64,000 nucleotides of DNA from a plasmid. Location of the stretch: sequence record NZ_CP031419.1. One strand, written 5' to 3'. Position numbers and translations under genes: made by a program. The notes beneath the pieces are model-generated. The model was not told where the DNA came from, searched no databases, and saw nothing but the letters and a program-made list of their open reading frames with translations. The stretch's first letter is position 1; each line of letters opens with the position of its first letter. Positions 2,088 through 39,770 of the stretch are shown piece by piece.

Positions 2088-2390
2088 GTCCTCCCAGCTC
2101 AAGGAACGGGTCCGTCCGTCTGGAACCCTCACAACGCCAGCTGACCATGCTGGCGCAGTCCGGGCCCAGGATCTCACACACCCTGGCCACTCGGCGCAGA
2201 TCGCATTGCCTCGCACCCGGAAGAGATCATTGTGCGTTAATGTATCTAAAGAGTCTATAGACACCAACGAGGAAGGAGGCCGCTATCGAAGTGGACGCTG
2301 TGGCACACCCACGACCGTGGCCAGCAGCGATTCATCTTGGTTAACCGAAATCAGCGTGTCGCGTGCTCCGGCGCGACTCTCCATGCAAGG

Positions 2391-2660
2391 ATGTCGCACA
2401 TGGCTGGAGTAAAGCGCCTGTCTTACTCACGAAAGACGTACGGCTTCAAGCTGCATCAGAACGTCGACAAACTGATCGACGAGTTGGCCGCCGCCGAAAC
2501 TGGAGGCGACCGGAGCAGGTTGCTGACGTTGCTGGTGTGCGAGAGGCGCGGCGTCCCGGTCGACGAGATCCTCGTTCCCGATGAGAACGGCCAGGAGTCA
2601 CTACTCGACGGCACCACGAAAAAGGAGGTCACAAGGAAGCACCGACAATCGGTCGCATAG
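2391..2660 (+). CDS. small hypothetical protein
   Basis: MSHMAGVKRLSYSRKTYGFKLHQNVDKLIDELAAAE. GC3 about 72%. Lies downstream of a TTTAGATACA promoter box. Confidence 0.45.
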   Translation: MSHMAGVKRLSYSRKTYGFKLHQNVDKLIDELAAAETGGDRSRLLTLLVCERRGVPVDEILVPDENGQESLLDGTTKKEVTRKHRQSVA

Positions 2661-2857
2661 TCCGGGGCTAGCTCACGCCAGCACGCCCTGAAGACCAGCG
2701 GAGACCAAAGACCACAAACTGAACAATCGACCGGGTTAACCACATGGACGGAAGCCCTCAGCCACGCCTAGCCGAGAGCTCCCGGTTCGTCCATGGGGGA
2801 TGAGCATTCGCCTTCTCATCTCCACGGTGTACCCCCTCAGCAACGAAAGGCCATCCC

Positions 2858-4735
2858 TTGCTGAAGGAACCCAGGGTCGAGGATACCGCACGCCCGAAAT
2901 CCGGTTCAACCGAAACCGCAGAGTGTGTCGAAAACTCACCCTCCTCAAACCGAAGCGGCAGCCCACCAGGGCCACCATCACAGCTCAGATTGCGCGAGTT
3001 GGACCATGTCCTCTACTCCGGTCCCTACGTTCTCATCGACGCCGACAACCATTCGCCGCGCCGGACCCGGTCTCTCGACAGGGCGTACGCCGCGATCGAC
3101 GCCGGCGAGGTTGCTACGGCTGGTGGGACTCTCCGGCCTGGCAACGTCGGCGCAGACATCGACCCCCTCCCAGAGCACGCTGTGCTCGGTGACGCGGTCG
3201 CCGAGGTACTCGTCGGGTGGCTCCACGATCAGGGCATCTTCTACCTGGCGCGTGAGTCCGGTCGGCCCGGAGGTCGGCACGTTGTAGGCGTCGGCGCATC
3301 GCCGGACCAGATGGAGGAATGGAACCGCCTGTGCGCCGATACCGCGCAAGCGTTCGGCGTTCCGGTCGACGACCGCTCTGGCGGCGTGCTGAGACTGCTC
3401 GCCGCCCCGCACCGCAAGGGATACTCCGCACCTGTTCTCGGCGGAACGCTGACGCTGAACGCCCCCACCGTGAGGACGCGAGCCAGCCGGGTCCGCGGTG
3501 CGCGGCCGGCGCGTCGACGGCCTTCGCCTAGCTCTCGCCCGGCGCCCGCTGGTCCCGACACCTCCCGCTCTGCGCGGGAGTACGGGCAAGTCTGCGCCAT
3601 GATCCGCCGTGGATGCACCCCTGCCGAGGCGTGGCGGGCCCAGAACCGCCCCGGATCGAAAGCTTCCGAGCGTGGAGAGCACCGGTGGCGGCGCTTCGTC
3701 TGGCTCGATGCCCACACCACCGTGTGCGCCGAGGAAGGGCTTACGCCGGAGCAAGCATGGCAGCGGGTCAGCGCAGCAAGTCCGGCCGTGTGCCGCAAGA
3801 TCGGACGGCGAGCATGGCAGCGCCTCTGGGAGCGTGCGGTCGAGCAGGCGGCCATTCAGCGGCCGCGCCGGCGGCGCCTGCCGTCCGACACTGTGAATAG
3901 GTCGACGGGAGCGGACAACGCGCGGATCGCCGCTGTCGCAGCGGGCCTCAAAACAGCACTCGATGCGACAGATCTGGGCGTGCGCCCCCAACGACGGAGG
4001 AACTGCGAGATTCTGCTGCTGAACCTCGCGCCGGTCTTCGTCAGGCGGGAGGGTTCAATCTCGGTGCGGGATATCGCTCTTCGTGCGGGCATCGACGTGA
4101 AAACGGTCCGGGTGTGCCGCGACCTACTCATCGCCCACGGACTTCTCGCGACGACGCACCACTACGCAGGCGGCGCGTCGGACAGCCACGCTTACGCGAT
4201 GGGACCAGCGGCCCGTCCTTACGTCGACGACGCAGTTTCGAAAATTTCCCCCACTTGTCCGAAGGACACCCCCCTCCCCCCAACGCCCTCCGGCCGCGCC
4301 GACCGCTCCCTCCTCCGCTCCCGCTTCCGCCGTGAACGCCACCACTGGCGCATCCGCTGCGCAGCCCTAGCCGACCTACCCCCTGGTGAATCCCTGGCCA
4401 GCAGCTCGTCACCCGCGGTGAAGGCGTACCGCTCGCTGCGCTACCAGCAGCGCTGGTGGCGCAGCCTGTCGTGCGACGACCAGGAGGCGCGTCGGGCTGC
4501 CAGGCGCGCGACACTCGAGGCGCTGACCCCCAGCGCCCGCTCGGCCTGGTTCAACTGGCTGGACCGGCGGAACAGCCTGGTGGCCGTGGTTGATCGGGCT
4601 GCCGCCGGAACCTTCACTTCGACCGACCGATCTGTCCTGGCTGCTGCGCCTCGAACTGTGCACACGGGGCTGCAAGACCCCAGCTGGCAGCCCTGCCGCC
4701 CTCGGAGCAGACAGCTCGTCTTGGCGGCGGCTTAG
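2858..4735 (+). CDS. putative replication initiator (primase-polymerase-like DxD motif plus C-terminal winged-helix domain)
   Basis: TTG start with GAAAGG RBS. LIDADN (hhhDhD-like) motif and a C-terminal wHTH-like segment (SVRDIALRAGIDVKTVRVCRDLLIAHGLL). Sits next to a repeat-rich candidate origin. Confidence 0.5.
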   Translation: MLKEPRVEDTARPKSGSTETAECVENSPSSNRSGSPPGPPSQLRLRELDHVLYSGPYVLIDADNHSPRRTRSLDRAYAAIDAGEVATAGGTLRPGNVGADIDPLPEHAVLGDAVAEVLVGWLHDQGIFYLARESGRPGGRHVVGVGASPDQMEEWNRLCADTAQAFGVPVDDRSGGVLRLLAAPHRKGYSAPVLGGTLTLNAPTVRTRASRVRGARPARRRPSPSSRPAPAGPDTSRSAREYGQVCAMIRRGCTPAEAWRAQNRPGSKASERGEHRWRRFVWLDAHTTVCAEEGLTPEQAWQRVSAASPAVCRKIGRRAWQRLWERAVEQAAIQRPRRRRLPSDTVNRSTGADNARIAAVAAGLKTALDATDLGVRPQRRRNCEILLLNLAPVFVRREGSISVRDIALRAGIDVKTVRVCRDLLIAHGLLATTHHYAGGASDSHAYAMGPAARPYVDDAVSKISPTCPKDTPLPPTPSGRADRSLLRSRFRRERHHWRIRCAALADLPPGESLASSSSPAVKAYRSLRYQQRWWRSLSCDDQEARRAARRATLEALTPSARSAWFNWLDRRNSLVAVVDRAAAGTFTSTDRSVLAAAPRTVHTGLQDPSWQPCRPRSRQLVLAAA

Positions 4736-5422: not shown

Positions 5423-5716
5423 TCAGGTTTGGTTCGAGGGGACCTCGGGCATGCGTCCGTGTTCGTCGGGTCGCGGCACGCCGGCCGAATCGAGCCAGGC
5501 GTTGACGGCATCGTCTACGGTCTTAGAGATGACGTAGCCGCGCTTCTTGATCCAGTCGAGACGAGCGATCGTCGAAGCATGGAGTTGCGTCCCAAACTGC
5601 TTCTTGCCGACGCCTTTTCGAACCGGCAGCTCCACGGCCGCGGCTACTGAGGAATCTCCGCTGGTAGGTGTACTGCGCGAAGCATTCACGGTAACTCCTC
5701 CAATGAAGATGGACAT
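5423..5716 (-). CDS. small putative DNA-binding protein, divergent from parA
   Basis: KKQFGTQLHASTIARLDWIKKRGYVISKTVDDAVNAWL resembles small RHH/partition-regulator proteins. The N-terminal 25 codons have low GC3, so the start is uncertain. Confidence 0.35.
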   Translation of the reverse strand: MSIFIGGVTVNASRSTPTSGDSSVAAAVELPVRKGVGKKQFGTQLHASTIARLDWIKKRGYVISKTVDDAVNAWLDSAGVPRPDEHGRMPEVPSNQT

Positions 5717-5877: not shown

Positions 5878-6591
5878 ATGGCATACGTCGAGGTTGTTCT
5901 GAATCAGAAGGGTGGCGTCGGCAAGTCCACGCTCACCGTCAACCTGGCGGCCACCACCGCGGATGCGCTGTCGAGCTCGGAGCCGGGCACCATCTCTCCC
6001 GTTGCGGCGGTCAGCATCGACCCCCAGGGGTCGGCAGTCTGGTGGGCAGACCGAGTTGCGGATCTGCCGTTTCATATCGTCCAGGCGCACAATGACATTG
6101 AAGGACTGCGCGCTCTCCGGAACAGCAGCAGCATCGACCACTTCTACGTCGACACCCCAGGCTGGATCGGCCACGACGAAGATGACGAAGCAGCTGCCGA
6201 CCCTCTCGGCAAGGGGCCCGCGGCCGAGGCGCTGCGCGCTGTGCTCGAATCCGCTGACCACGTGATCGTGCCGATCGAGCCCGAGCCGCTCGCGTTCGAT
6301 CCGACGGCTCGGACAATCGAGAAGGTCATCAAGCCGCGTGGGTTGGATTTCCTTGTCGTAGTCAACAACTGGGACCCACGAGACGGTATGGCGGACTTGG
6401 AGCAGACCAAGGACTACGTCAAGGCCAACGGGTGGCCTCTCGCGAATACCGTGATCCGCCACTACAAGGTTCACGCACGTGCCGCAGCCGAAGGCACCGT
6501 GGTGACGGAGTACCCGCGCAACCGAGTTAGCTTGGAAGCGCGTGCCGATTTCAGCAAGCTCGCTCTTGAGCTCAAGGCCGGGGCTCGCTGA
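5878..6591 (+). CDS. parA: ParA partition ATPase
   Basis: Deviant Walker A motif VVLNQKGGVGKSTLTVNLA. GGAGG RBS before the ATG at 5878. 1-nt overlap with parB (TGATG). Confidence 0.9.
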   Translation: MAYVEVVLNQKGGVGKSTLTVNLAATTADALSSSEPGTISPVAAVSIDPQGSAVWWADRVADLPFHIVQAHNDIEGLRALRNSSSIDHFYVDTPGWIGHDEDDEAAADPLGKGPAAEALRAVLESADHVIVPIEPEPLAFDPTARTIEKVIKPRGLDFLVVVNNWDPRDGMADLEQTKDYVKANGWPLANTVIRHYKVHARAAAEGTVVTEYPRNRVSLEARADFSKLALELKAGAR

Positions 6592-7508
6592 TGGCCGGCC
6601 GGGGCGGTCGTGCGAACCTCGCCGACCTGGTTGGTTCCACTGGGAAGAACTCCACGGTCGACGGTGTGAACGCACGAGCCAGTTCGCCTGCAAAAGGGTC
6701 GACACCCGAGGTGGTGGTCAATGGGGCGCCACTGGAGATCAAGCTGGAAGATCTCGTGGCGAATCCGTTGAACCCGCGCGAGATCATGGATGTGGACGAT
6801 CTCGCTTCTATCATCGAGATTCAGCTGCAACCGGCATTGATCATCGGCCGAGAGGCGTACCTGAAGCTCTGGCCCGAGCTGGAGTCGGAGCTGGGTGATG
6901 CCAAGTATGTCGTCATCAACGGTTGCCGACGTCTGGAGGCTGCCCGAAAGTTCGGCCGGACGACCCTTGAGTGCGTTCGCAAAGACGAAGTCGCTGACTC
7001 GAGAGCGAGTCTGCGAGCGGCGTCCATCCGAGAGAACGTCGAACGGGAGAACCTCGACGTAATCGAAGAGGCGAAGGCCGTCGAGGCGTTGGTTTCGGAC
7101 TGCGAGGGCAACGGAGCGCGGGCCGGGCAGATCCTCGGCAAGACGAAAATGTGGGTGTCTCAACGCCGGGCGCTTCTAAAGCTCACACCGGAGCTTCAGG
7201 CGAAGCTTCGGGCGGGCGAGCTTGCTATCCGAGAAGCCCGAGAACTCGGCCGAGTTCCCGCTGAGGAACAGGTCGCCCGCTGGAAGGCTCAGCTGGAGAA
7301 GAAGGAGAGGGAGCAAGAGGGCGAGACGTCGGAGTCGAATACGTCGAGGCGCGATGTCGACACCGTGAAGATCGTCAAGACGCTCAAGAAGTGGGACGCG
7401 GACACTGCGGTTCTCGCCTCCGCGCTCTTCGTGCATCTCGATCGAGGTGGTGTGCACGAGTTGATCGAGCAGCTAAATCAGATGGCTACGTCGAAGGAAG
7501 GCGAGTAG
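6591..7508 (+). CDS. parB: ParB/Spo0J partition protein
   Basis: ParB box VVINGCRRLEAARKFG and an NPREIM motif. Followed by a perfect 14-bp hairpin. Confidence 0.9.
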   Translation: MAGRGGRANLADLVGSTGKNSTVDGVNARASSPAKGSTPEVVVNGAPLEIKLEDLVANPLNPREIMDVDDLASIIEIQLQPALIIGREAYLKLWPELESELGDAKYVVINGCRRLEAARKFGRTTLECVRKDEVADSRASLRAASIRENVERENLDVIEEAKAVEALVSDCEGNGARAGQILGKTKMWVSQRRALLKLTPELQAKLRAGELAIREARELGRVPAEEQVARWKAQLEKKEREQEGETSESNTSRRDVDTVKIVKTLKKWDADTAVLASALFVHLDRGGVHELIEQLNQMATSKEGE

Positions 7509-11516: not shown

Positions 11517-11670
11517 GCTGACCCTCTTTCCTGAGCGTTGTAATGGTGCAGCGTAGGCGCTGCACCATTACAACGCAACCACCGCGCTCGGAGCTGCGGA
11601 CGCCGCCGGATTCAGATGTTTTCGATACACTCGAATAACTAGAACTTTCGACAGGAGGAGGTCTGAACCG

Positions 11671-12129
11671 ATGGAACTGGCGACGTATCCCCAGGTGCCG
11701 GGGCAGCTGGCCCTGTGGGAGCCCGAAGTCGAGCAGCCGCCCGCACGGCCGTCACATCCCCACCGGCCGGCCGGACTGCACACCTGCCCCAACCCGGAGT
11801 GCGGCTACCCCGCGAAGGGGGAAAGCGCACGCGGGCGCCTGCGAGAGGACGTGAAGGTCGTCTGGCTCGTACCCGACCCCGACCAGCCGGACACCCCAGC
11901 CGAGCGCCGCTACTGCAACCGCTGTCGCCCGCGGCCACCGCAGCAAATCGCCGATGTCGAGTGCGCGGCCTGCGACCATGGCGGGCCGCTCCTTGTCGGG
12001 GCACTCGCGATCACGCTGCGCGCCAAGGGGAAAGTCCCCACCGCCGTCCTCACATGGTTGATGGACCAGGGGTGGCGCGAGCAGGAGGGCGGGGGGCTCC
12101 TCTGTCCCGACCATCCCGCCCACCGATAA
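11671..12129 (+). CDS. Cys-rich (zinc-ribbon-like) small protein
   Basis: GGAGGAGG RBS. Cys pairs CPNPEC, CNRC and CAAC. Unbiased composition. Confidence 0.6.
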   Translation: MELATYPQVPGQLALWEPEVEQPPARPSHPHRPAGLHTCPNPECGYPAKGESARGRLREDVKVVWLVPDPDQPDTPAERRYCNRCRPRPPQQIADVECAACDHGGPLLVGALAITLRAKGKVPTAVLTWLMDQGWREQEGGGLLCPDHPAHR

Positions 12130-15583: not shown

Positions 15584-16019
15584 GGGAATCGTCCCTTCGT
15601 GATTTGCGAGTGGGTCGAAGAAGGCGGGGTGTCCGGTCCCGCTTCCTTCTATGTCATATATTACCCGTTAAAGTTGATCGAGGTCAAGAACTTTCTTGAC
15701 GTGTCTTTTATCGAAATTATCTGTGCGGCAACAGCTTTCGATTCTCCTGCCGACCTGGGGATCGGGGCCGCAAACGCTACCGATACAATGGATGTTTTAG
15801 ATACACTGGAAGTGTTCGAAAAGTGCCCGCTCCCCGCGTTCGCCCACGTCAACGGAGCCGGAAGGGCTCGACAACGGCGTCGGGCCCAGCGGCGAACCCG
15901 CGAGCAGACACCGATCACACGAGAACCGCTGAGCGCTCGCGCGTCTCGGACCGGCCGCATACGTCGGAACGAGGTGGAAGACTTGCGGGCGAACGAGGCG
16001 TGGCCGACGCAACCGAACG

Positions 16020-18236: not shown

Positions 18237-18572
18237 TTCGGCCGTGGCCACGCGTGTGGGATGCCGCGTCTTTGGCATACTGGCTGCGGGCCGTGGCGGG
18301 CGGCCCTACGGCCTGCTGATGCAGCGGGAGACCCCGTTGAAGAAGCGTATCGCTCCACCCGCCCACTAACATTGATGCCCTGCTGACGCTGATATGGAGC
18401 TGAACTGGGCAAATGCGGTTCTGGCTCCGGATAACTGCCATTATCCGGAGTGACACCAAAAAACACTACGGTGAGATACCCCCGCGCGGAGCACCTTTAG
18501 ATACATTAGAATAAATGGGCATGGCGGGAGCGCGATACCCGCGTCCACCAGCGGCGAACGCCGCCGGAGGAG

Positions 18573-24212: not shown

Positions 24213-24258
24213 GGAAAACTCCTCCGGGAATGCGCGAGTGGGGATGGGCGGATGGCGG

Positions 24259-26331: not shown

Positions 26332-26716
26332 TCAGCCGTTGACCCACTCGATCGGCACTTCCACGCCCCAGAAGCGGCGGTGGAGCAGCCGCCGGGCGTT
26401 CTCGGCGTCGGTCAGCCGTCCGTCGCGGCGGCGGAAGTGGACGATCGGGCAGCCCTCGATCGAGGGCCAGAAGGTGCCGTCGGCGTGCCGGATTCCGGAC
26501 TGGATCAGGGCGTACGCCTCGCGGCCGGAGCCACCCGAGTTGCACGCGGTCACCCGGACGACGGGCACCCCGGCGGCGATCCGCGCGTCGCGCTCGGCGA
26601 CGGCCTCGGCGGTGTCGAAGTACTCGGGGTCGTGATTAGAGGCGTAGAGAGCGGCGCGGATCTGCTCGGCGGTGCACTGCACGTTCAGCTGTCCGGCCGC
26701 GGCGGTGGAGGGCATG
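26332..26716 (-). CDS. hypothetical protein
   Basis: MPSTAAAGQLNVQC start with a GAAGGAG RBS. 128 aa. Confidence 0.5.
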
Positions 26717-26801
26717 AGGTGCTCCTTCGGCGATGGCGAGTGGGGGAGCGACGGGCGGAAGTGTCCGGTTTCCGCCCCGTCGCTTCGGGTGACGGAAAGG
26801 G

Positions 26802-27212
26802 TCAGAAGGGTGCTTCGTCGTCGCCCCACGGGGCGCTTGAGTCACCGCGCCCGTCGGCGGGCTCGTCGTCCTCGTCGTCGGGGTTCCAGTCGTCGGGGAC
26901 GCCGTCGGCCCACACCACTGCCTTGGCGTTGTGGTCCCAGGTGACGTTGGCGAGGGCCTGCACGTTCTCCAGCGAGGCGTCGTCTTCGACGCGAACGCCC
27001 GCCGGGATGTGCCACAGGTCGCCCCGGAAGTCCCAGGCCGACCCGCTGCGCTGGGCCGAGGAGCTGACTTCCTCGGCCGCCCAGGCGCGGGCGTCGGCCT
27101 CGGTGACGAATTCCTTCTCGTCGAGGGAGCGTCGCTCGGACGCGGGCGGGACGTCGGAGAAGACGACGTAGAAGCGATCGTGGTCCGCGACCACTGCTGC
27201 CAGAGGACTCAT
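26802..27212 (-). CDS. acidic hypothetical protein
   Basis: 136 aa, Asp/Glu-rich C-terminus. Preceded by a full copy of the conserved leader. Confidence 0.55.
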   Translation of the reverse strand: MSPLAAVVADHDRFYVVFSDVPPASERRSLDEKEFVTEADARAWAAEEVSSSAQRSGSAWDFRGDLWHIPAGVRVEDDASLENVQALANVTWDHNAKAVVWADGVPDDWNPDDEDDEPADGRGDSSAPWGDDEAPF

Positions 27213-27372
27213 GGGAATGCCCTTTCGTAGGGTGCGAGTGGGGTCGAAGAAGGCGGGGTGTCCGGTCCCGCTTCCTTCTATGTCATATATTACCCGATAT
27301 ATCGGCGAAGGCCAAGCACTTTCCGATGGGTGAGTCGGATTGGTTCCCGCCCGATCGGTCTCGGGCGGGAAG

Positions 27373-27837
27373 TCAGTCGGTGCTGTAGGAGTGCCGGTGC
27401 CGGGCCGGGGCGCATTGCCGACGGCGCAGCACGGCGAGCCGTCGCGTGTCCTGCGATCGGGCGGGGCTCGATGGGCGCGCCGCCGGGCATCCCTCCGGTT
27501 CGCCGAGCGGTGCGGTGGCAGACAGAACAGCGAGGGCCGCCTCCCAGCGATCGGCCCGGTCCGCCGCCCGCAGCTGCACCGCCAGAACGGTCAGGCTCGC
27601 CGCGCCGACACCGACGGCGACCACGGCGAGCGGCGCGGACAACGGCATGGTCGCCACCGCCCACAGGAACGACAGCGCCGCGAGGCAGCCGTGCGCCGCC
27701 GACAGCGTGGTCGCGCCGGGTCGCTCGCCGGTGGCGGGGAACCGTTGCGCGTCTCGGCGGTAGGAGAGCGCGAGCGCGGCGAACACGACACCCGGCCCGC
27801 CGAGGAGCAGGGCCGGGACGGCGTACGAGGCGGACAC
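27373..27837 (-). CDS. membrane protein
   Basis: Several hydrophobic helices (AVPALLLGGPGVVFAALAL, AALSFLWAVATMPL, LAVVAVGVGAASLTVLAV). Confidence 0.45.
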   Translation of the reverse strand: MSASYAVPALLLGGPGVVFAALALSYRRDAQRFPATGERPGATTLSAAHGCLAALSFLWAVATMPLSAPLAVVAVGVGAASLTVLAVQLRAADRADRWEAALAVLSATAPLGEPEGCPAARPSSPARSQDTRRLAVLRRRQCAPARHRHSYSTD

Positions 27838-27842
27838 AGCCG

Positions 27843-28379
27843 TCAGCTCCGCACCCGTGCGGCGGCTGGCGCGCCCGCGTCGGCGGCAGCGACCCGAACC
27901 GGATCGGCAGCGGCGGACGGACCGCCGGAACCGGCTGGAGCCGGATCGGGTTGTGGGACGGCGGCGGACGGGGTGACCGGCGTGCCCGGGGAGGTCGACT
28001 CAAGTTCGGAGTCCTCCGCCGGCGGCGGAGTCAGCGGCGCTTCGGCCGCAGCGGTCGACGCACGTGAGGGGCGAGGCCGAGGCTTGGCCTTCGCCCGCTT
28101 CGCCACAGCACGGATAGCGTCGGTGGGCTTGAGTCCGATCCGTTCCAGCGCGGCCGCCTCGGCTCCGGCATTGGTGGCCGCCTCGTAGGCAGCCACCACG
28201 GCATCCTCGGCAGCTTCCTCATCGGCGATCAACCGCGCTGTCTCGGCCCGGCGCGTCTCGGACGCCTGCTGCCATTCCCCGACCTTCACCGCGAGTTCGC
28301 CGATGCGCGTCTCCATATCGTCGTCGATGACCGCCCGCCGGTACGCGGACAGAGCATCGGTCGCCATCTTCTTCGCCAT
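27843..28379 (-). CDS. hypothetical protein with low-complexity Ala/Pro tail
   Basis: MAKKMATDALSAYRR... N-terminal helical part. A TTTAGATACA box lies about 50 bp upstream. Confidence 0.5.
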   Translation of the reverse strand: MAKKMATDALSAYRRAVIDDDMETRIGELAVKVGEWQQASETRRAETARLIADEEAAEDAVVAAYEAATNAGAEAAALERIGLKPTDAIRAVAKRAKAKPRPRPSRASTAAAEAPLTPPPAEDSELESTSPGTPVTPSAAVPQPDPAPAGSGGPSAAADPVRVAAADAGAPAAARVRS

Positions 28380-28698
28380 GGGAAACCTCTCGTCGCTCAG
28401 CGCTCACTAATGGAGCGATCGAACCTAGTGTATCTAATGTATCTACAGAACGGAGGTGGTCAACCATGCGAACGGGAGTCGGGTGAGTGCGCGCCTTGCT
28501 CGCCGGGTGTCCCGTTCGTTCAGTCTGCGCACCGGGGCGGGCTGGGGTCGGGCGCCCGCAGCCTCGATCCAGCCCCCCTCGTTCACGGCACCGGCCTCGT
28601 CGCGTATCGCGCCCGCCCAGCGAACGAAAGCGTTTTCCACGTGGAGCTCACCGTGAGCCGCAGCGTGGCTGACCAGCCTTTTCCGGTGAGCAAGATAT

Positions 28699-28880
28699 CC
28701 CAAAACCCCGGGGTTTTGGGTTGCGCCCGGGGACGGGCGCGAGACACACTCGAAGTGATTCGAGTGTGTCTAAAGCCTCCAGAGGATCTGGAGGCGCCGA
28801 TGTACCCAGACCTGCGGTCCGGCCACATCGGCTGGCCCGGCAGGCGACTGCCGGCCCTGCGAGCGCACCAGTGCGCCCGG
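28699..28880 (+). other. candidate oriT upstream of mobC (stacked inverted repeats plus an RSF1010-like nic motif)
   Basis: Perfect 22-bp palindrome CCCAAAACCCCGGGGTTTTGGG (28699-28720). IR GACACACTCGAA/TTCGAGTGTGTC (28743-28771). IR CCTCCAGA/TCTGGAGG (28777-28795). GCGCACCAGTGCGCCCGG (28862-28880) resembles the MOBQ nic core AAGTGCG|CCCT. Confidence 0.45.
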
Positions 28881-28898: not shown

Positions 28899-29318
28899 GT
28901 GCCCCCGAAGAGCAGACAGGGCCATCGGCCTCACTCCGTCGAGAAGCGGACGCGCCGCCATGAGGCGCTGTTCGCACCCGCGGAGTGGGCACTAGTGGCC
29001 GCCGCGGCGGCCACTGTCGGGCTGAAGCCTGGCGCCTTCATCGCCAAGGCAGCCGTTGGTGCCGCGCGTGCGTTCGCCGCACAGCGCAATGGCTCAGCCG
29101 TCCGCACCAGCGGCCAGGTGGAGATCCTCATCGCCGAGGTTCGGGAGTTGCGCCGACTGCTGGGCAACGTGGCCGGGAATGTGAACGATGTCGCCAAGCA
29201 CGCGAACTCCACCGGCGAACTCGGCCAGAACGCGGACGCGGTGCTCGCCTACACCCGCAAGATCAACGGCCGCATCGACACATGGTTGGTTGAACAGCTT
29301 CGGCACGGTGCGCTGTGA
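28899..29318 (+). CDS. mobC: MobC-family mobilisation protein
   Basis: GNVAGNVNDVAKHANSTGEL matches the MobC signature (GNNLNQLAKhAN). Confidence 0.8.
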   Translation: MPPKSRQGHRPHSVEKRTRRHEALFAPAEWALVAAAAATVGLKPGAFIAKAAVGAARAFAAQRNGSAVRTSGQVEILIAEVRELRRLLGNVAGNVNDVAKHANSTGELGQNADAVLAYTRKINGRIDTWLVEQLRHGAL

Positions 29319-30946
29319 TCGGCAAGGCGATCAGGGGATGGGACGGGCAGCGGCTCGTGCGGTACCTGTTCTCGAAGGGCAAGTACAACGAGCACACCAA
29401 CCCCACCGTGATCGCAGCATGGCAATCCGACCCCGACGCCCTTCAACCGGTATGGGTCGGCCCCGACGACTGCGACTTCGCGCCCGGTGAGATCGGCAAA
29501 CTCGCCAACCAGGTAACCGCCCTGTCGGATGCGATCGGGCTGCCCACCGAACAGCCCGAGCCCGGCCAGCCGGGCTACACCAAGCACGGCTACATCTGGC
29601 ACCTGCCGGTGGCCATCGGCGCCGAAGACGGGGAACTCGGCCACGACACCTGGCGGCGCATCGCCGAGGACATGCTGCACGAGACCGGGATCGCGAAAGC
29701 GGGAGACGCCGGGGCGTGCCGGTGGATCGCGGTGCACCACGGCAAGTCCGTCGACGGCAACGACCACATTCACATCGCCGCGGTCCTCGTGCGCGCCGAC
29801 ACCGGCAAACGCTTCTACCCCGACAACGATTGGAAAGCCGTACGCCGCGTCGCCCGGCGCTGGGAACAAGCTCTCGGTCTGCGAATGACCGCCATCAACG
29901 ACCCGTCGGCCGTACCCACCCCGACGCGCGGGGAACAGGAAAAGGCGAAGCGCCGCCACGCCGCCGGCGACGACGGCATGCTGCGAGCGACACCAGGTGC
30001 CGCGGCACGGGTACAGCTGCGGCAGATGATCACCGAGACCGCCGCCGTCGCGACGAGCGCCGACGAATTCGTTGCCCGGCTCCGCGACGCGGGCATGCTC
30101 ATCGACTTCAAGTACGACGCCATCGGGCAGATCAAGGGATGGGCGGTCGCCGCTCCCGGGGACGTATCGGCGAGAACCGGCGAGCCCATCTACTTCGCGC
30201 CCAGCCGGCACTTGGGCGCAGATATGTCTTGGCCGCGGATCACCGCCCGCTGGTCGGCCTCCGTGCCCGGCCGTCCCGGCGCCGCGCGGGAAGCGGCCGC
30301 CACCGACACAGCACGCGAGCCGCATGCAGTGCTGGCCGACAGCGCTGAGCGGGTCCGGTCGGTCACCACCGCAGTGCGCGGTGGCCGCGCCGACGTGGCG
30401 ACCGTGGCCCGCGAGTTGCAGGACGTCATCAGTAGTTGGGCATCCATCGCCGACGGTGCGGCGCGCCAGGGCCCGCTCTCCCGGGCCGCCTGGGTCTACG
30501 ACCGCGCCGCCCGCACCCGGCGCGGTCTGGCCGCCGTTCCCGCCGGGCAACTCGCCGCCGAACTGCGTGAGGTCTCGCGCGGACTCGCTGCGGTCCGAAT
30601 GCTGTCCGGTCGCGGCCTGCAACGAGATCCGAGCCTGCAACTCGGGCTCGCTATCGCCGAACTGTTGCTGGAGATCGCCGCATGGCACCAGCAGAACCAG
30701 CGCATCGCTGCCGCGCGCAGTGCCCGCGAAGCCGCCGGCCTGGTGCGCGCGCACGGGGAGGCCACCGGTGCCGTCCCGGGCCAGCTCCCGCCGCGGCGCG
30801 CCCCGGCGGGCACCGGGCACACGCCCACCGTCACAGCACACCCCGGTCCGGCCGCGCGGCCGGGCGAAGGCCGCCGCGAACTGCCTGCGGTGCGCGGCGT
30901 CCGTGAACTGCCGTCCGGCCCAACAAGGAAGGAACACCGACGATGA
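29315..30946 (+). CDS. relaxase/mobilisation nuclease (MOBQ/MOBP-like)
   Basis: N-terminal Tyr region (RLVRYLFSKGKY). His-triad motif HHGKSVDGNDHIHIAAV (HxDxxNxHxH). Confidence 0.85.
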   Translation: MIGKAIRGWDGQRLVRYLFSKGKYNEHTNPTVIAAWQSDPDALQPVWVGPDDCDFAPGEIGKLANQVTALSDAIGLPTEQPEPGQPGYTKHGYIWHLPVAIGAEDGELGHDTWRRIAEDMLHETGIAKAGDAGACRWIAVHHGKSVDGNDHIHIAAVLVRADTGKRFYPDNDWKAVRRVARRWEQALGLRMTAINDPSAVPTPTRGEQEKAKRRHAAGDDGMLRATPGAAARVQLRQMITETAAVATSADEFVARLRDAGMLIDFKYDAIGQIKGWAVAAPGDVSARTGEPIYFAPSRHLGADMSWPRITARWSASVPGRPGAAREAAATDTAREPHAVLADSAERVRSVTTAVRGGRADVATVARELQDVISSWASIADGAARQGPLSRAAWVYDRAARTRRGLAAVPAGQLAAELREVSRGLAAVRMLSGRGLQRDPSLQLGLAIAELLLEIAAWHQQNQRIAAARSAREAAGLVRAHGEATGAVPGQLPPRRAPAGTGHTPTVTAHPGPAARPGEGRRELPAVRGVRELPSGPTRKEHRR

Positions 30947-34021: not shown

Positions 34022-35893
34022 TCAACGTCCGCGTCCGGGAGTCCGCTGCGGGGCAGCGCTGGTATTTGCTCTACTGGCCGGGGTCATCGACGTACCGGCG
34101 GCCGCGGGCGCTCCGGCAGACGGGGTCAGCGGTCCGTTCGCCGCCCGCAGCGCCTGTTCCCCGCGCCGGGCCTCTTGCAGCTGGGCGAAGGTTGGGCGCC
34201 CACTGCCGTTGCGGGCGGTAGCCGTCACCGTCGAGGTCTGGCTGCGTGCTACGGGGGCGGTAGCTTCGGCGGCGCTGGCCTGCTGCACGTAGCGCAGGGC
34301 GGCCTCCACCACCGCGCCAGTCTTGCGAGGGTCACCGTTGGGAAGTGCGGCCCACTGCGGTGAGCCAACCTCTGGGATCTCCCCCCGCCGCATGGCAGCG
34401 CGCAGATACGGGCCTGCCCACGCCTGTACCGCGTCGACGCTCAGGCGATCCGCCGTGGATGGAAACCCAGGCTGCACAGCAGCCGCCTCCTGTTCTGCCA
34501 GCACATCAGCGCGCATAACACCGGGCAGGGTCTTGAGCTTGTCGGGACGGAATCCGGAGAACCGAACGTCTCCCGCCTCCACCACCGGCGCGCCCTGGAA
34601 CCCCATGTCCAGCAATCGCTGGCGTGCGGCCGAGTCCTGGGTGACATCGACGATCCGATAGTCGAACCCGAGATTGTCGAGGGTGCGCTTGGTGGCATCG
34701 CACTGCGGGCACTGCGGTTTGGTGTAGACGGTTATCTGGACGCCTTCGCCCGGCGCGATTGCGGTCTGTGCCATGGTCGTCTCCGGATTCTGTTGGTTCT
34801 GCACTGATTTCGCGGGCGCACTCTCGATCCCGAGTTCGGTCTCTGCTTCCGGGGCCCACTGCCACCGCCAGCCTGTCTCGGGGTCGAACGACCGCCGGAA
34901 CACGCCCTCCATGGCCTTCTCGGCCGCCGCGATGGCCTCGTCCGCACCGGGGAATCCGCGCTCGAGTTGCTCATCGGTGACGGGCACAAACTCGTCGAAG
35001 TCGTGCCCGAGATCGAAGTGGTTGCTGGCGTCCTTGCCGGTCGCCGCTTCCACGACGAGCACTTCCCCCACACGCCCGACCAGCATCCGCTTGACCTGGA
35101 GGGCGTGCTGGTAGCCCGCTGAATCGCGATCAGCGATGATGATTACTCGCCGTGCGCCGGTGAGCTGGCGGGCGTGCTCGAGCCGAAACGAACCGGCACC
35201 CATTGCATTGCAGGTGGCGAACCGCCCGGCAGCCCGAATTCGGTCGACGTCCTTCTCTCCTTCGGGGAGGTGGATGTCTTCGCCGTCAGCGATTGCCTGT
35301 ACCACCTCGGGAAGGTGATACAGCACCGGTTCGAACCCGCCTTTGCTCCACCGCCCGCCGGCATCCATCTTGCGCTGGAAGAACATCTTGTCGGTGCCGC
35401 GCTCGTGCGGAACGTGCATTCGCACGACCTCACCGAGGGGGCGTCCTCGGTGGTCGGTGTAGTGGTAGATCGCCGCCTGGTAGCGGGGACCAACCACCTT
35501 GCCGAGGCGTTCCTTCTTTGAGGGCTTCGGCGGAACCTGTGCGTCACGTCGCGCTTCCGGACCTTCCGGTCGCGGCGCTCGCGGCCGCGACGGCGAGCCG
35601 GGCGCGCGGACCCACTGCCGGTCCCAAATCGCTGATTCAGGCAGGCCGACCGTGGCCAGCACCTCGGTGTCGGAGCATCCGGTAAAGCATCTGACCACGG
35701 TCTTGTGCTTGTCCGCGTTGTAGATCAGGCCCAAGCTCGGATCATCGTCCTGATGCGCCGGGCAGTGGTACATCGTCCACTGCCCGCGCTTCGATGCTGG
35801 TCCTGCCGGGCGACTGTTCTCGAATGCCCACTCGTCGAGTGCCCGGGTGATCCGGGCAAACGACGGAGGTGAGCCGGGCTTATCAGTTCTCAC
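34022..35893 (-). CDS. DNA primase (zinc-finger plus TOPRIM) fused in frame to an NrdH/glutaredoxin-like domain
   Basis: CPAHQDD...CFTGCS zinc finger. TOPRIM segment RVIIIADRDSAGYQHA. NrdH-like ITVYTKPQCPQCDATKRTLDNLGFDYRIVDV (CxxC) with no intervening stop. Confidence 0.7.
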   Translation of the reverse strand: MRTDKPGSPPSFARITRALDEWAFENSRPAGPASKRGQWTMYHCPAHQDDDPSLGLIYNADKHKTVVRCFTGCSDTEVLATVGLPESAIWDRQWVRAPGSPSRPRAPRPEGPEARRDAQVPPKPSKKERLGKVVGPRYQAAIYHYTDHRGRPLGEVVRMHVPHERGTDKMFFQRKMDAGGRWSKGGFEPVLYHLPEVVQAIADGEDIHLPEGEKDVDRIRAAGRFATCNAMGAGSFRLEHARQLTGARRVIIIADRDSAGYQHALQVKRMLVGRVGEVLVVEAATGKDASNHFDLGHDFDEFVPVTDEQLERGFPGADEAIAAAEKAMEGVFRRSFDPETGWRWQWAPEAETELGIESAPAKSVQNQQNPETTMAQTAIAPGEGVQITVYTKPQCPQCDATKRTLDNLGFDYRIVDVTQDSAARQRLLDMGFQGAPVVEAGDVRFSGFRPDKLKTLPGVMRADVLAEQEAAAVQPGFPSTADRLSVDAVQAWAGPYLRAAMRRGEIPEVGSPQWAALPNGDPRKTGAVVEAALRYVQQASAAEATAPVARSQTSTVTATARNGSGRPTFAQLQEARRGEQALRAANGPLTPSAGAPAAAGTSMTPASRANTSAAPQRTPGRGR

Positions 35894-35985
35894 GGCGCAC
35901 CACCTCCACGGGTGCTTATGAATCTGATGGAGCTAATGTATCTAAAATGGAGCCCGCGCCAGCGCTGCGAGTCCGCCGGGACTGC

Positions 35986-36189
35986 TTACCTGCGCTTTGC
36001 GACTCCGGCCAGACCGGCCAGCGTCATGCCCACGGCCGCGCCGAGGACACCACCCACTGCTCCCAGAGCCTTCCGCCCCGTCCGCTTACGGCCTCGCGTG
36101 GGGGCCGGGTTCGGGTGCGCCATGTTGACGGCGACCACCACGACCACGATCAGCACAGCAACGACCGGGTACACCAGCAGAAGCGACAT
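35986..36189 (-). CDS. small membrane protein
   Basis: AAGAGGAGG RBS. MSLLLVYPVVAVLIVVVVVAV and GAVGGVLGAAVGMTLAGL helices. Confidence 0.45.
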   Translation of the reverse strand: MSLLLVYPVVAVLIVVVVVAVNMAHPNPAPTRGRKRTGRKALGAVGGVLGAAVGMTLAGLAGVAKRR

Positions 36190-36283
36190 TTCTGATGACC
36201 TCCTCTTTCGTCGTCGATGGCCAACCTGCACGTGGTGCGAATGTATCTAAAAGCAGTGTCGCAGTTTCGCCGGCCGGCCGCAA

Positions 36284-36703
36284 TCATGCCGCCGACCGCT
36301 GCTCGGCAGTGGCTGCGACCTCGGCCCACTCTCGGCAGTAATCCAGGGCCGTGCCCGGAGAGAATCCCGGGACGGTTTCTTCCCAGCTCAGCGACGGATT
36401 CACGGTTGCGCTGAGGCTGGGACCACACACGTACCACGCCCAGCGATTGCCTTCGGGCAGGCGGTCAAGGGTGCGCGGGTCCTGCGGACCGATGAGGAAC
36501 CAGTGTTCGCCGACTCGCACGGTGGAGACGTCGTAGGTCGCCATCAGCGTATGCAGCACACGCCGCCAGTCGGCGCCATCGGCCTTGACCAGCAGAGCCA
36601 GTCGCAACGCGCGGCAATACCGCAGTTCAGCGCAGAGATTTCGGACCCGGTAGCGGACGGCATAGACGAGATCCGCAGCGATGGTCGTGGCCCGCGCGTT
36701 CAT
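36284..36703 (-). CDS. hypothetical protein
   Basis: 139 aa, unbiased. 4-nt overlap with the upstream gene. Confidence 0.5.
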   Translation of the reverse strand: MNARATTIAADLVYAVRYRVRNLCAELRYCRALRLALLVKADGADWRRVLHTLMATYDVSTVRVGEHWFLIGPQDPRTLDRLPEGNRWAWYVCGPSLSATVNPSLSWEETVPGFSPGTALDYCREWAEVAATAEQRSAA

Positions 36704-37686
36704 CGCGCTGCCCTCCTCGCCGCAGCGGCCACCGGTGCGGCCTGAGCTGCCGGTGCGGCGCCGAAGGTGAATTCCCGTCTACCGGTGGCTGCTGCTGCGG
36801 GTGGCGTCAGCGGACCGCGGGCGGCCGCCTGGATTTTCGACCACATCCCCTGCCGTTGCGGTTCGGTCTGGCTCGCTTGATGCGCGGCACGCAGTTCCTG
36901 GTTGATTCGGTCGGAGGTGATGCCGAGTTGTTGTGTGCGGGTGAGGGCTTCGTGGAACTCGGTCACCACCGCCGCGAGATCGGTCTCAGCCTCCTTGGCT
37001 TCGCGTGCCTGTGTCGACGCCTTGTCGAAGCGCTGCGCCGCCGCCGTCAGATCGGCCAGGGCAGCGGCTTGGCCGGGCGTGAGCCACGACGAGGGGCCTT
37101 CCGGCTGTCGCGCCTGGTTGTGCATCGCGTCTGCCTGCCACTGAGCCAGCCGGAAGGGAGCTGAACGCAACTGCTGCGTCACGGCGGTGATGCCGAGACG
37201 GATCGCGGAGACCTTCTCCGCGACACGAGCTTTGAGCGCTTCCATGGCACTGTTGACCTCCCACTTCACTCGCACCGCGGCCCCCGGCACAGCGTGCGCC
37301 TGCGCCAGCGCCTCCACGGCCCTACCCCGGTCGGTCGCGCTTAGGTGGGGTAATTCGTGAATCCGTCGCTCAAGTCGGGTAGCGGCGTCACTCAGCTCTG
37401 CCTGCTTGCGGGCCCACGTCTCGTGCTGCTCCTCCTTCTCGGGTTTGAATCCCGCCGCGACGACCGCCTTCTGATGGTGCAGGATGTCCAGTTCGAGCTG
37501 CGTGCGCGTGATCGAGACATCCAGCTGGCGGGAGCGGGTGTCGTTGCGTACGGCGCGCGAGATTTCCCGGCGCACGTGCCGCGGGATCGCCTGGGCGGTC
37601 GGGTCCTGCGCCCGCCACGCGGCGATCGTCTCCGCCACCGCTGCGGCGAGAGTGTTGGGCTCGGGCCCAGCTTTCGCGTCGGCCAT
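36700..37686 (-). CDS. coiled-coil hypothetical protein
   Basis: Start MADAKAGPEPN with a GAGAGGAAGGAG RBS. Heptad-like helical sequence. Confidence 0.55.
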   Translation of the reverse strand: MADAKAGPEPNTLAAAVAETIAAWRAQDPTAQAIPRHVRREISRAVRNDTRSRQLDVSITRTQLELDILHHQKAVVAAGFKPEKEEQHETWARKQAELSDAATRLERRIHELPHLSATDRGRAVEALAQAHAVPGAAVRVKWEVNSAMEALKARVAEKVSAIRLGITAVTQQLRSAPFRLAQWQADAMHNQARQPEGPSSWLTPGQAAALADLTAAAQRFDKASTQAREAKEAETDLAAVVTEFHEALTRTQQLGITSDRINQELRAAHQASQTEPQRQGMWSKIQAAARGPLTPPAAAATGRREFTFGAAPAAQAAPVAAAARRAAR

Positions 37687-37830
37687 CGTCGACTCCTTCC
37701 TCTCGGTGATCGGTCGCTGGCAGTGGGTGCCGGCCACGAATGGGCACAGCACCCAGAGCCGCTAGTTATGTTAATGGTTCGAGTGTATCTAAAACATGGT
37801 TGGTGTCATCCCTGTTGACCAGATCGTTCG

Positions 37831-39018
37831 CTAGCGTCCGGGCCGCACCAGCCCGGAAGTGGGCGAGTACTTCATCGGGAACAGGCCCGCCAGGGTCGCC
37901 GCAAGCTCTCGATAGGCCAGCACCGTGCGCGGGTGCAGCAACTGCGGATCGATGACGCCGCCCTCGTCGAGGTGACGGTCATAGGGGATCTCGTGCACGG
38001 CGTGGACCAAGTGGTTGAACCACCTCGTTGCCGCGCTCGCGTCGAACATTCGCCGGCCGGGCTGCTGATGGGAGATCACGACGACGGTCCGGGACAGCAA
38101 GCCCCGGTACAGCCAACGGCGCTCGCCCCGTTCGTCCAGCAATGGGTCCCCGGTCACGGGGTCCTTCGCGAAGGCGGTGTGCAGGTACTCGACCGCCGCC
38201 ACCGCCTCGTCGGCGGAATCCTTCTTGGCGTCGAGGGGGATCACCAGCGCATCGGCCTCGTCGAGAACGGCCTGGGTGGCTGGGTGGGTGATCCCGGTTC
38301 CGCAATCGGCCAGCATCAGCGGGAAGTAGTCGCTCGCCAGGTCGACCAGCTGGCGGTAGTCGTGGGCGGAGAAGCTGTCGGCCGTCGCCGGATCGGCTGC
38401 CGAGGCCAAGATGTCCAGGCCCGCCGGTGTCAGTTGCGTGTGAGTGCGCACGTCCTGCACCCGCCGCGGCCGCGGTCCGGCCAGCAGGGTCAACGCCGAG
38501 GACTCGGTGCGCGCCGTTGTCCGGCGTGCCAGGTTGCCCCTATCGGGATTGACGTCGAACGCGATTACGCCATCGGTCCGGCAGGCTGCGAAGGCGTTGC
38601 CGATCCCCATGGCGGTCGTTGTCTTCCCTGATCCGCCCTTGAGCTGTACCACTCCGATGCGGAAATCGGACTCGATCGCGGTGCGGATTCGCCGGTCGAG
38701 CTCCCTGGCGCGCACTTCGGCGGGGCTCTCTCCGAGGTTCAGCGTTTTGCCCGACATCAGATAAAGCGCACGCCGCCAACCCGATCCCGGAGCTGGGCGA
38801 ACCGGGTCTCGGCGCCAGTCCCGCGACTCTGGGGTAACCGCCGCTGACCGATCAGACGACGTGTGCCGCCACTCGCCGGCATGCGCCCGCTGGAGCGGGC
38901 TGACGCCCTGTGCGGGAACGCCGTCTGTCCATAGCCCGCTGTCGGCGCGCCCTCCGTAGGCCGCGGTGTCCGTACTCCACGGCGCCACCACGGGCGGGGG
39001 CGAGTACTGCTTGGCCAT
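37831..39018 (-). CDS. ParA/MinD-family ATPase with N-terminal extension
   Basis: Deviant Walker A VQLKGGSGKTTTAMGIGNA. Confidence 0.75.
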   Translation of the reverse strand: MAKQYSPPPVVAPWSTDTAAYGGRADSGLWTDGVPAQGVSPLQRAHAGEWRHTSSDRSAAVTPESRDWRRDPVRPAPGSGWRRALYLMSGKTLNLGESPAEVRARELDRRIRTAIESDFRIGVVQLKGGSGKTTTAMGIGNAFAACRTDGVIAFDVNPDRGNLARRTTARTESSALTLLAGPRPRRVQDVRTHTQLTPAGLDILASAADPATADSFSAHDYRQLVDLASDYFPLMLADCGTGITHPATQAVLDEADALVIPLDAKKDSADEAVAAVEYLHTAFAKDPVTGDPLLDERGERRWLYRGLLSRTVVVISHQQPGRRMFDASAATRWFNHLVHAVHEIPYDRHLDEGGVIDPQLLHPRTVLAYRELAATLAGLFPMKYSPTSGLVRPGR

Positions 39019-39035
39019 CCTCTATTCCCTTCTGC

Positions 39036-39488
39036 TCATGAGGTTTTCGATGAGATCTTGTCCTCGGTCGACTCCGATTGGGTGATCCGCTTGTCGCCCT
39101 CGGCCTTCTCGGCGACGGCCTCTTCGGCCCAGTCCGACCACGCCGGGTAGGACTCCGCTTCGGCCCACCATGCGTTGCGCGCGTCCTGCCACACCTCGAC
39201 AGAGCAGCTGAACGAGCGCCGAGGCCGAGTGCCGGCCTGATCCGGGGGTGTGCGCCGACCAGGCGGCAATCGGTCCGGGGCGGGCTCGAACGTGGAGATA
39301 CCGAGGTTCTGGCGCGTGCGCGCGGTCTTCTCGGCGAGCGCCGCCTCGAGCCATCCGGTCCAGGTCGGGTACTGGCGGAGTTGCTGGCCCCACTTCTTCT
39401 TGGCGGCTCCCCACACCTCGTCACTGCACGAAAAGTTCTCTCGGCTCCATCGACGTCCCCCCGCCGCGTCGGACTGTGTGTCGGCCAC
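39036..39488 (-). CDS. hypothetical protein with duplicated Trp-rich module
   Basis: NFSCSDEVWGAAKKKWGQQLRQYPTWTGWLEAALAEK and SFSCSVEVWQDARNAWWAEAESYPAWSDWAEEAVAEK are tandem repeats. Confidence 0.55.
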   Translation of the reverse strand: MADTQSDAAGGRRWSRENFSCSDEVWGAAKKKWGQQLRQYPTWTGWLEAALAEKTARTRQNLGISTFEPAPDRLPPGRRTPPDQAGTRPRRSFSCSVEVWQDARNAWWAEAESYPAWSDWAEEAVAEKAEGDKRITQSESTEDKISSKTS

Positions 39489-39770
39489 AGGCTCTTCCTT
39501 CCTCTCGACGGCGTCGCAGGCTGGGTCGCACCTGACCGCAGCCGCAGGGTTCCACTGTATCTAAAGGTGCGTCCACACCTAATGGTCCGAGTACCCCCGC
39601 CGAGCCTTTCGGATCTATCGCACCATTAGATACATTAGAGGCATACCAAGTTTACCTGCGGCAACCGTCGCAGGTGAAACCGCAAAACGGATGTTTTAGA
39701 TACATCAGCTACAACGGAACCATTGGGGCTGGTGACCATCGCCGCCCCGCCGCCGAACAAGGAGGCGAAC

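Follow-up and report, generated by a model that had tools for sequence, protein, structure and literature searches.

The sequence analysed here is a 64,000-nt stretch of the plasmid record NZ_CP031419.1 (the window), in which an AT-rich box, TTTAGATACAYT, recurs in front of many genes. Megablast searches with all three thirds of the window revealed Nocardia plasmids at 90-96% identity (N. cyriacigeorgica NZ_CP026745.1, N. farcinica pNF1 (NC_006362.1), NZ_CP133581.1 and NZ_CP086600.1), and the cargo region at 47-62.5 kb likewise matched Nocardia plasmids. The whole window is a pNF1-family Nocardia plasmid and not a chromosomal island. A megablast search of the window against phages gave no match, and Rfam and tRNA scans of the window found nothing, which leaves no RNA-family explanation and no tRNA integration site. 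The G+C content is ~0.60-0.73 per kb and ~0.68 overall, where the original prediction had given 70%. The boxes belong to arrays of head-to-tail 9-bp repeats, which are probably oriented operators for an orphan protein of 150 amino acids (aa) with a predicted ribbon-helix-helix (RHH) fold, encoded at 39036-39488 on the minus strand.

The recurring AT-rich box is real and lies far above chance expectation, as had been claimed. Exact copies of TTTAGATACAYT number six in the window against 0.00 expected from 100 dinucleotide-preserving shuffles, and copies with up to two mismatches number 14 against 0.48 expected (highest single shuffle, 3). Sites were listed through the 8-nt core TAGATACA with its flanks, by lowest coordinate, and the whole window was then scanned with a position weight matrix (PWM) built from the sites. 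The scan revealed 13 units at 11 places with scores of 27-38 bits; the next scores lay at or below 19 bits, and the maximum in shuffled sequence was 18. Cores are found on the plus strand at 11622 (TCGATACA), 15798, 18498, 39627 and 39697, and on the minus strand at 2241, 28429 and 28438 (in tandem, 9 bp apart), 28765 (TAGACACA), 35937, 36242, 37784 and 39556. The copies reported earlier are real, but several of their coordinates were 2-11 nt off (35943-35954 is corrected to 35935-35946, and 36251-36263 to 36240-36251); the count of at least ten stands, with two sites overlooked at 11620-11631 and 28763-28774.

Every site is intergenic and faces the nearest downstream gene, over a range of 2.2-39.7 kb, and the four sites between co-directional genes are all co-oriented with those genes. 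The idea of an oriented, promoter-proximal signal common to many transcription units of one mobile replicon is borne out by this arrangement. So is the presence of a TAnnnT hexamer in the box, which reads TACAYT or TACAGT in 12 of the 13 units (the exception is TACATC at 39697). Distances from the hexamer TACAnT to the start codon are 39-65 nt at eight sites and 95-240 nt at the remainder, and do not all fall between the 35 and 150 bp first proposed.

The 12-mer that had been taken as the unit proved to be part of a larger pattern, which a plain promoter leaves unexplained. TTTAGATACAYT corresponds to unit 0, the best-kept unit of an array of ~3-4 head-to-tail 9-bp units with the consensus T-A/C-G-A-W-N-C-A-Y, and the aligned sites carry information from ~-4 to +16 around the core. 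In a register test, the template T[AC]GA[AT]NCA[CT] was scored at each offset. Its means in the window were 4.8, 7.8, 6.1 and 4.6 at -9, 0, +9 and +18, over a background of 2.46, and at any other offset the score was 4.2 or lower. Eighteen sites from relatives, which lay outside the derivation of the template, gave 4.5, 7.4 and 6.6 at -9, 0 and +9. Some relatives display near-equal units in succession: TAGATACAT TAGATACAT TAGAAACAT in G. polyisoprenivorans, TAGAACCAT TAGATACAT TAGAAACAA in G. hongkongensis, TAGATACAG TAGCTACAG TAGAGCTGC in locus L134 and GTGGATACA GTGGATACA in locus L132; an example of a triple array of 9-bp units is TAGATACATTAGATACATTAGAAACAT. The main feature that sets unit 0 apart from the units beside it is T-A at positions 5-6, and TACAYT straddles the junction of unit 0 and unit +1, being made of this T-A and the first T of the next unit. 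A TAnnnT hexamer spanning the junction would account for the stronger conservation of unit 0 compared with the other units.

The first array (2222..2257, minus strand, 27.6 bits) has unit 0 TAGATACAT in the region 2241-2249 with TAGACTCTT before it. Its target is a class I S-adenosylmethionine (SAM) methyltransferase gene (1417-2190, Pfam methyltransferase), and its counterpart in pNF1 lies at L006 30382. Three arrays follow on the plus strand. TCGATACAC TCGAATAAC TAGAACTTT (11613..11648, 30.9 bits) places its hexamer 39 nt before the ATG of a 152-aa gene (11671-12129). TAGATACAC TGGAAGTGT TCGAAAAGT (15789..15824, 29.2 bits) lies 212 nt upstream of a 314-aa gene (16020-16964) and is divergent from a cytosine methyltransferase gene. 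TAGATACAT TAGAATAAA (18489..18524) has the top PWM score of the window (38.3 bits) and is located between co-directional genes, 65 nt before a 310-aa gene (18573-19505). The minus-strand array at 28410..28454 comprises two full units, TAGATACAT TAGATACAC, then TAGGTTCGA, and precedes by 47-56 nt a 178-aa gene (27843-28379), the head of a long minus-strand operon beside the probable origin of transfer (oriT).

Further minus-strand arrays are found towards the gene of the 150-aa protein. TAGATACAT TAGCTCCAT CAGATTCAT (35918..35953, 36.5 bits) lies between co-directional genes, 41 nt before a 623-aa gene (34022-35893); TAGATACAT TCGCACCAC (36223..36258, 34.1 bits), a conserved island in a four-way alignment, lies 50 nt before a 67-aa membrane-protein gene (35986-36189); and TAGATACAC TCGAACCAT TAACATAAC (37765..37800, 36.2 bits) precedes a 328/345-aa gene (36700-37737). 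The array TAGATACAG TGGAACCCT (39537..39572, minus strand, 29.1 bits) is followed after 65 nt by the GTG start codon of the 150-aa RHH gene and is presumed to be the autoregulatory site of that gene. On the plus strand, TCGCACCAT TAGATACAT TAGAGGCAT (39618..39653, 32.1 bits) and TAGATACAT CAGCTACAA CGGAACCAT (39688..39723, 32.0 bits) both face a 175-aa gene and a 2162-aa methyltransferase-helicase gene. Pfam searches with 40 window proteins left most genes of this set without a family and revealed nothing sigma- or helix-turn-helix-like (HTH) beside the sites.

Regions upstream of four orthologous genes were aligned between the window and the diverged Nocardia loci L127, L128 and L130, where the 150-aa protein shares 75%, 66% and 58% identity, respectively, with that of the window. 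In each of the four alignments the array forms a conserved island amid diverged intergenic DNA, and in L130 the array before the 150-aa gene is shifted in position yet retained. The surroundings of the 150-aa gene were compared in loci from Nocardia (window, L127, L128/L129, L130), Rhodococcus (L131, L132, L133, L136, L139), a metagenome (L134) and Gordonia (L135, L140, L141). Forward units were found ~25-80 nt upstream of the gene or its operon in 12 of 12 loci, and the genes flanking it differ widely among them. In Gordonia and L134 the array lies where the relaxase operon and the operon of the RHH gene diverge, in the short gap that separates the two. Only ~18-26 nt separate the array from the ribosome-binding site or start codon in some relatives (L130 12282, L131), so that any -10 element must lie inside or upstream of the array.

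Of the Nocardia loci L128/L129 (466-kb and 23-kb contigs), the 466-kb contig carries a copy of the backbone segment, with giant helicase, RHH, 67-aa and primase-like genes and no ParA-like gene, beside PhoX and two-component genes. No relaxase was found in the 20 kb examined, and the units of this copy read TCGATACA / TGGATACA after drift; the segment may have integrated or be in decay.

The 150-aa protein is ~97% identical to WP_011212313.1 of pNF1 and belongs to a small family: clustering at 90% identity gives 35 clusters, and a search of 1.84 billion proteins gave 18 representatives at E<=0.001. The named members are all from Nocardia or Rhodococcus, and tblastn adds homologues on Gordonia plasmids. 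An alignment of 32 homologues showed an internal duplication, in which RxSFSCSxEVW..A..W....YPAW..W.EEA.AEK appears twice, and the linker between the duplicated halves contains an invariant PAPDRLPPGRR. An AlphaFold2 model built with the 32 sequences (mean predicted local distance difference test score (pLDDT) 79.4, predicted template modelling score (pTM) 0.70) has the topology E14-20 H23-35 H43-62 / E90-96 H97-109 H117-130. The model predicts two RHH units in one chain, that is, a single-chain pseudo-dimer, as in the structures of TraY, single-chain Arc and VirC2. The predicted fold resembles solved RHH proteins, and the matches include omega (2bnw), ArtA (3gxq) and the ParB of pCXC100.

The TraY protein of F is a monomer with the whole RHH-dimer fold in one chain, and three TraY molecules form a train on the two direct and one inverted subsites of sbyA (10.1101/2024.12.19.629322). 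The 150-aa protein is TraY-like in predicted fold and proposed action, and is not a member of the TraY sequence family. A single chain that carries the whole pseudo-dimer would read an asymmetric unit, and this would give the arrays their direction. Where an HTH protein had been suggested as the binder, the likely binder is a protein of predicted RHH fold. Two other small open reading frames (ORFs) of the window look RHH-like by eye (K-x-F/Y-G-x-x-L-H, then helices): 2391-2660 on the plus strand, divergent from the 2241 array, and 5423-5635 on the minus strand, upstream of parA/parB. Neither gave a Pfam hit, and the idea that they are paralogues was dropped, as no mutual similarity could be detected.

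The region 28685..28860 is a probable oriT, with six consecutive hairpins and a conserved CCCAAAACC..GGTTTTGGGATATCTTGCTC in the minus-strand reading. It lies upstream of a MobC-like gene (28995-29318, plus strand; weak MobC match) and a MOBP-type relaxase gene (29315-30946, plus strand; PF03432 Relaxase, 1.5e-07; MOBP by PLSDB typing). One of the six hairpins is the inverted repeat at core 28765: here the minus-strand unit TAGACACAC TCGAA (28742..28781, 30.5 bits) forms a perfect 13-nt inverted repeat, AGACACACTCGAA-4-TTCGAGTGTGTCT. N. camponoti (L130 19465) has an equivalent palindrome ahead of its relaxase operon. The inverted copy recalls the third TraY subsite at the oriT of F, which is likewise inverted. 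A hairpin with GGGATATCTTGCTC after it was found at 28685-28720 of the window (minus strand, reading CCCAAAACCCCGGGGTTTTGGGATATCTTGCTC) and in the gap between the relaxase and RHH operons of two Gordonia plasmids (L140 ~1720-1760, L141 ~2590-2625). The window element contains ATCTTG/C, which resembles the RP4-type nick region, ATCCTG/C; by this analogy the hairpin with GGGATATCTTGCTC is a candidate nic site.

The boxes stand before genes for maintenance and establishment, most of them of unassigned function, and at the probable oriT. The PWM scan gave no hit in the cargo of the window (47-64 kb). The earlier statement that the box occurs only inside the mobile element holds in so far as the boxes are limited to the backbone; the element itself, being a plasmid, fills the whole window. 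The complete pNF1 (184 kb) has 15 units, and both its metal-resistance cargo and its type IV secretion cluster (153-173 kb) are free of them; the suggestion that the box drives conjugation genes is not supported by this box-free secretion cluster. The plasmid pNF2 (87 kb), which is co-resident with pNF1 in N. farcinica IFM 10152, showed no PWM hit above 12 bits and no copy of TAGATACA. It also has a MOBP relaxase, and no homologue of the 150-aa protein was found on it. Its lack of the box implies that the box is not a general feature of promoters in this host. In the scans made (window cargo, pNF2 and pNF1) the putative operator is confined to replicons that encode the putative regulator. An IMG/VR pattern scan with TTTAGATACAYTNGAA returned only single chance matches in AT-rich viral contigs and was uninformative, and a literature search found no description of the box or of pNF1 regulation.

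pNF1 also has arrays that are absent from the window, at L004 26914 (plus strand) and L004 33275-33284 (minus strand), so that the set of array-bearing genes differs between close relatives. One of these arrays neighbours a Tn7-like (TniB/TniQ) transposon and has downstream of it a GNAT-like ORF that PLSDB does not list among the genes; the other precedes an NAD/FAD oxidoreductase gene.

The same operator-like array thus stands in many promoter regions and, in 12 of 12 loci, before the gene of the putative regulator. We give somewhat better than an even chance to the reading that the arrays are oriented operators through which the single-chain RHH protein encoded at 39036-39488 controls the backbone genes. 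We infer that this protein binds the arrays and that TACAYT is a -10 element. RHH molecules would line up on successive 9-bp units as a directional train, and the train would cover the -10-like TACAYT and the start region of about eleven backbone promoters. The targets would be its own gene, the ParA-like and primase-like genes, the genes for the giant methyltransferase-helicase and the SAM methyltransferase, and several operons of unassigned function. As to the sign of regulation, analogy with KorA, omega, ArtA and TrwA suggests repression after establishment and a burst of expression on entry to a new cell. The inverted unit pair in the oriT may further reflect a second, TraY-like role in the relaxosome.

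Several observations weigh against this reading. The link between protein and motif is co-occurrence in one plasmid lineage, and shared ancestry could give the same pattern. The +18 unit was not reproduced at the 18 sites of the relatives, and many sites have weak units past +9; at a pitch of 9 bp with no spacers, moreover, successive units fall on different faces of the helix. For the protein, Pfam assigned no family to any of 16 members even at E values up to 10, and a PDB sequence search of the family gave no meaningful match. AlphaFold2 with 16 sequences yielded an unusable model (pLDDT 54.6), and the Foldseek E-values of the fold matches are weak (0.1). The two RHH-looking ORFs at 2391-2660 and 5423-5635 and the MobC-like protein are candidate alternative binders. 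Finally, the protein could activate and not repress its targets, by analogy with F TraY, which activates its own promoter PY.

The arrays may be operators for a different plasmid factor, namely one of the two RHH-like ORFs, the MobC-like protein, ParB or a regulator or sigma-like protein that escaped recognition. The array evidence itself names no binder, and the 2241 array lies in a divergent gap beside the RHH-looking ORF 2391-2660. We nevertheless consider this unlikely. The 150-aa gene is the only one that we found preceded by an array in all 12 loci, including loci with differing neighbours, and a predicted single-chain pseudo-dimer suits an asymmetric unit; the two small ORFs, for their part, have no Pfam hit and no detectable similarity to each other.

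A second explanation, to which we give slightly less weight still, is that of a plain promoter: a well-kept -10 (TACAYT with the upstream TTTAGA), read by the housekeeping RNA polymerase of the host without any plasmid factor. The TAnnnT hexamer of nearly all units, the orientation of the boxes towards genes and the mostly 39-65 nt to the start codons are consistent with it. We searched the aligned sites for a conserved -35 element and found none, with no information upstream of position -4, and when TTTAGA was taken as the -35 itself, no conserved -10 appeared 17 nt further downstream; only the 37784 site has a sigma-70-like ATGACA-16-TACACT. Promoters of Actinobacteria often lack a -35 element, and for this reason its absence does not exclude a promoter. 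A plain promoter does not account, however, for the 9-bp units on both sides of the hexamer, the inverted copy in the oriT and the triple arrays of Gordonia, nor for the complete absence of the box from pNF2 in the same host. TTTAGA at -18 to -13, moreover, fits no known extended -10, and one unit reads TACATC. The original prediction had proposed a shared promoter or regulator site; of these, the regulator half is better supported.

The third alternative regards the arrays as centromere (parS-like) sites of a type Ib-like partition system, in which the RHH protein would be the adaptor of a ParA-like ATPase and any effect on transcription would be secondary, as compared with omega/delta of pSM19035 and ParG/ParF. 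A MinD/ParA-like ATPase gene (37831..39018, minus strand; CbiA/AAA_31/MipZ matches) indeed follows the RHH gene. Its product probably comprises 395 aa from the ATG at 39018, as in L127 (395 aa), and not 308 aa as annotated in some relatives. Only 17 nt separate the RHH stop codon from the ParA-like start, which places both genes in one operon, and the two genes are also adjacent in L127 and in plasmids of R. erythropolis and R. opacus. Centromere-binding RHH proteins recognise arrays of short direct repeats that also serve as operators, and omega and the pCXC100 ParB are among the fold matches. The RHH-ParA order is, however, the reverse of that in classical type Ib partition loci, and in Gordonia, L128-L129, L133 and L134 the RHH gene and the arrays are present while no ParA-like gene lies next to the RHH gene. 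A conventional ParA/ParB pair is already present in the window (5878-7508). Eleven dispersed, promoter-proximal and gene-oriented sites also exceed what a centromere needs. Partition could be an added function of the arrays and not a rival to their role as operators. We regard the centromere as improbable as the primary role; the comparison suggests that positioning or partition may be a possible extra role of the RHH/ParA-like pair, and not its core conserved function.

It is very unlikely that the arrays are stoperator-like roadblocks, i.e. oriented repressor sites that halt elongating RNA polymerase in the manner of L5 gp71. The arrays at 35937, 36242 and 37784 occupy successive short gaps of one co-directional gene string (39.5 to 34 kb) and point along transcription, and the sites are asymmetric; for these three arrays the idea is conceivable. 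Most sites, on the other hand, head transcription units or are located in divergent gaps; a TAnnnT inside the site and a ribosome-binding site close by suit promoters better, and the L5 repressor is an unrelated HTH protein. An RNA-level element of the 5'-untranslated region, or replication iterons, could be suspected from the gene orientation of the boxes upstream of start codons and from the six arrays within 3.8 kb beside the primase-like gene, but is barely credible, as neither an Rfam hit nor a conserved pairing partner was found, the inverted DNA copy and the logic of 9-bp direct repeats point to recognition of double-stranded DNA, and the arrays are spread over 37 kb at gene starts and not gathered at one origin. 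Iterons and a DnaA box were ruled out by the dispersed layout and by sequence.

Seen as operators of the RHH protein, the arrays can be compared with several known systems. F TraY (sbyA at oriT, sbyB at PY) has the single-chain RHH fold that is predicted for the 150-aa protein, and is alike in its direct and inverted subsites. The 150-aa protein differs from it in having no detectable sequence homology, a high-GC actinobacterial host, a MOBP and not a MOBF relaxase, a long conserved PAPDRLPPGRR linker, at least 11 backbone sites compared with two, and, in several lineages, an operon with a ParA-like gene. The omega protein of pSM19035 (inc18) is likewise an RHH protein on contiguous short repeats over several promoters, is autoregulated and has a ParA partner. 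Omega is a homodimer from a Firmicutes host that acts on 7-bp heptads in runs of 7-10 at three promoters, whereas in the pNF1 family we find a predicted single chain, 9-bp units in runs of 2-4 and ~11 promoters. VirC2/VirC1 of Ti plasmids, which act at overdrive, share the pairing of an RHH protein with a ParA-like protein. There, however, virC1 comes before virC2, opposite to the order in the window, overdrive is one site close to the border and no transcriptional role is known; the structural score of VirC2 against the 150-aa protein is also below that of TraY.

In KorA/KorB of RK2, ArtA of pSK41 and ArdK/StbA/TrwA of R388, one operator stands in many backbone promoters, often over the -10, and the regulators are autoregulated; ArtA, moreover, is an RHH protein. 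The presumed common logic with regulons of the KorA and ArtA type is an entry burst followed by shut-down. Those operators are mostly palindromes for symmetric dimers and none is actinobacterial, in contrast to the asymmetric, gene-oriented tandem arrays described here. The L5 stoperators resemble the arrays as asymmetric sites (~13 bp) in many copies and one orientation, in short intergenic gaps of a mobile replicon of Mycobacteriales. They differ in that gp71 is an HTH protein that binds single sites as a monomer and blocks elongation, and not a protein of a plasmid with 9-bp arrays, a -10-like hexamer and sites at operon heads.

Plasmid-wide operator regulons, RHH regulators that bind direct repeats and the structural precedent of TraY are well known. 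New are an orphan family without a sequence link to TraY, the large conjugative plasmids of Mycobacteriales as a host group, for which we found no relevant literature on regulation, and an oriented 9-bp array with a -10-like hexamer at the unit junction. New, too, is an apparent expansion from one oriT-side site in Gordonia to a backbone-wide regulon in the pNF1 family. It is conceivable, though we hold it doubtful, that the RHH protein began as a TraY/VirC2-like relaxosome accessory beside oriT, as in Gordonia, and became a backbone-wide master regulator in the pNF1 lineage, where directional trains on 9-bp units, with the -10 made at the unit junction, would couple transfer at the oriT, positioning by the ParA-like partner and the expression of establishment genes by means of a single protein and a single DNA word.

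Large conjugative plasmids of Nocardia, Rhodococcus and Gordonia bear metal and drug resistance, catabolic and virulence cargo, and their backbones are annotated almost entirely as 'hypothetical'. The analysis yields a putative regulon of ~11 transcription units plus the oriT, a 9-bp DNA word and a specific 150-aa candidate with a predicted fold, which together make the regulation directly testable. If the proposal is correct, TraY-type single-chain RHH proteins extend to Actinobacteria, a relaxosome accessory protein can come to regulate a whole plasmid, and high-GC hosts gain a portable operator/promoter module with a set orientation. A directional train on a promoter-embedded repeat would, in that case, be an operator grammar undescribed for other plasmid regulators.

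Some of the genes behind the arrays have features of their own. The frame of the methyltransferase-helicase ('DarB-like') gene (39723-47057) is open for 850 nt upstream, across the 175-aa gene (39877-40404, in another frame). The ATG at 39771 in this frame has a strong AAGGAGG ribosome-binding site, and could belong to a leader ORF, be an overlapping start or be a chance occurrence in GC-rich DNA. In the 623-aa protein (34022-35893) a clear glutaredoxin domain is combined with DUF2742 and a weak match to Toprim; all Nocardia relatives keep this fusion, and the protein may serve in replication or priming. The tandem array and the probable nic site are followed by ~16 co-directional genes on the minus strand (19860-28379). 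Pfam assigned no family to 10 of 10 proteins analysed from this string, which would be the first DNA to enter the recipient if the nick is placed as proposed. The string includes an apparent toxin-antitoxin-like pair at 20470-20990 (minus strand), in which a 69-aa product beginning MAKLNISLPDATAQALRE, resembling RHH antitoxins, is followed by a 104-aa ORF.

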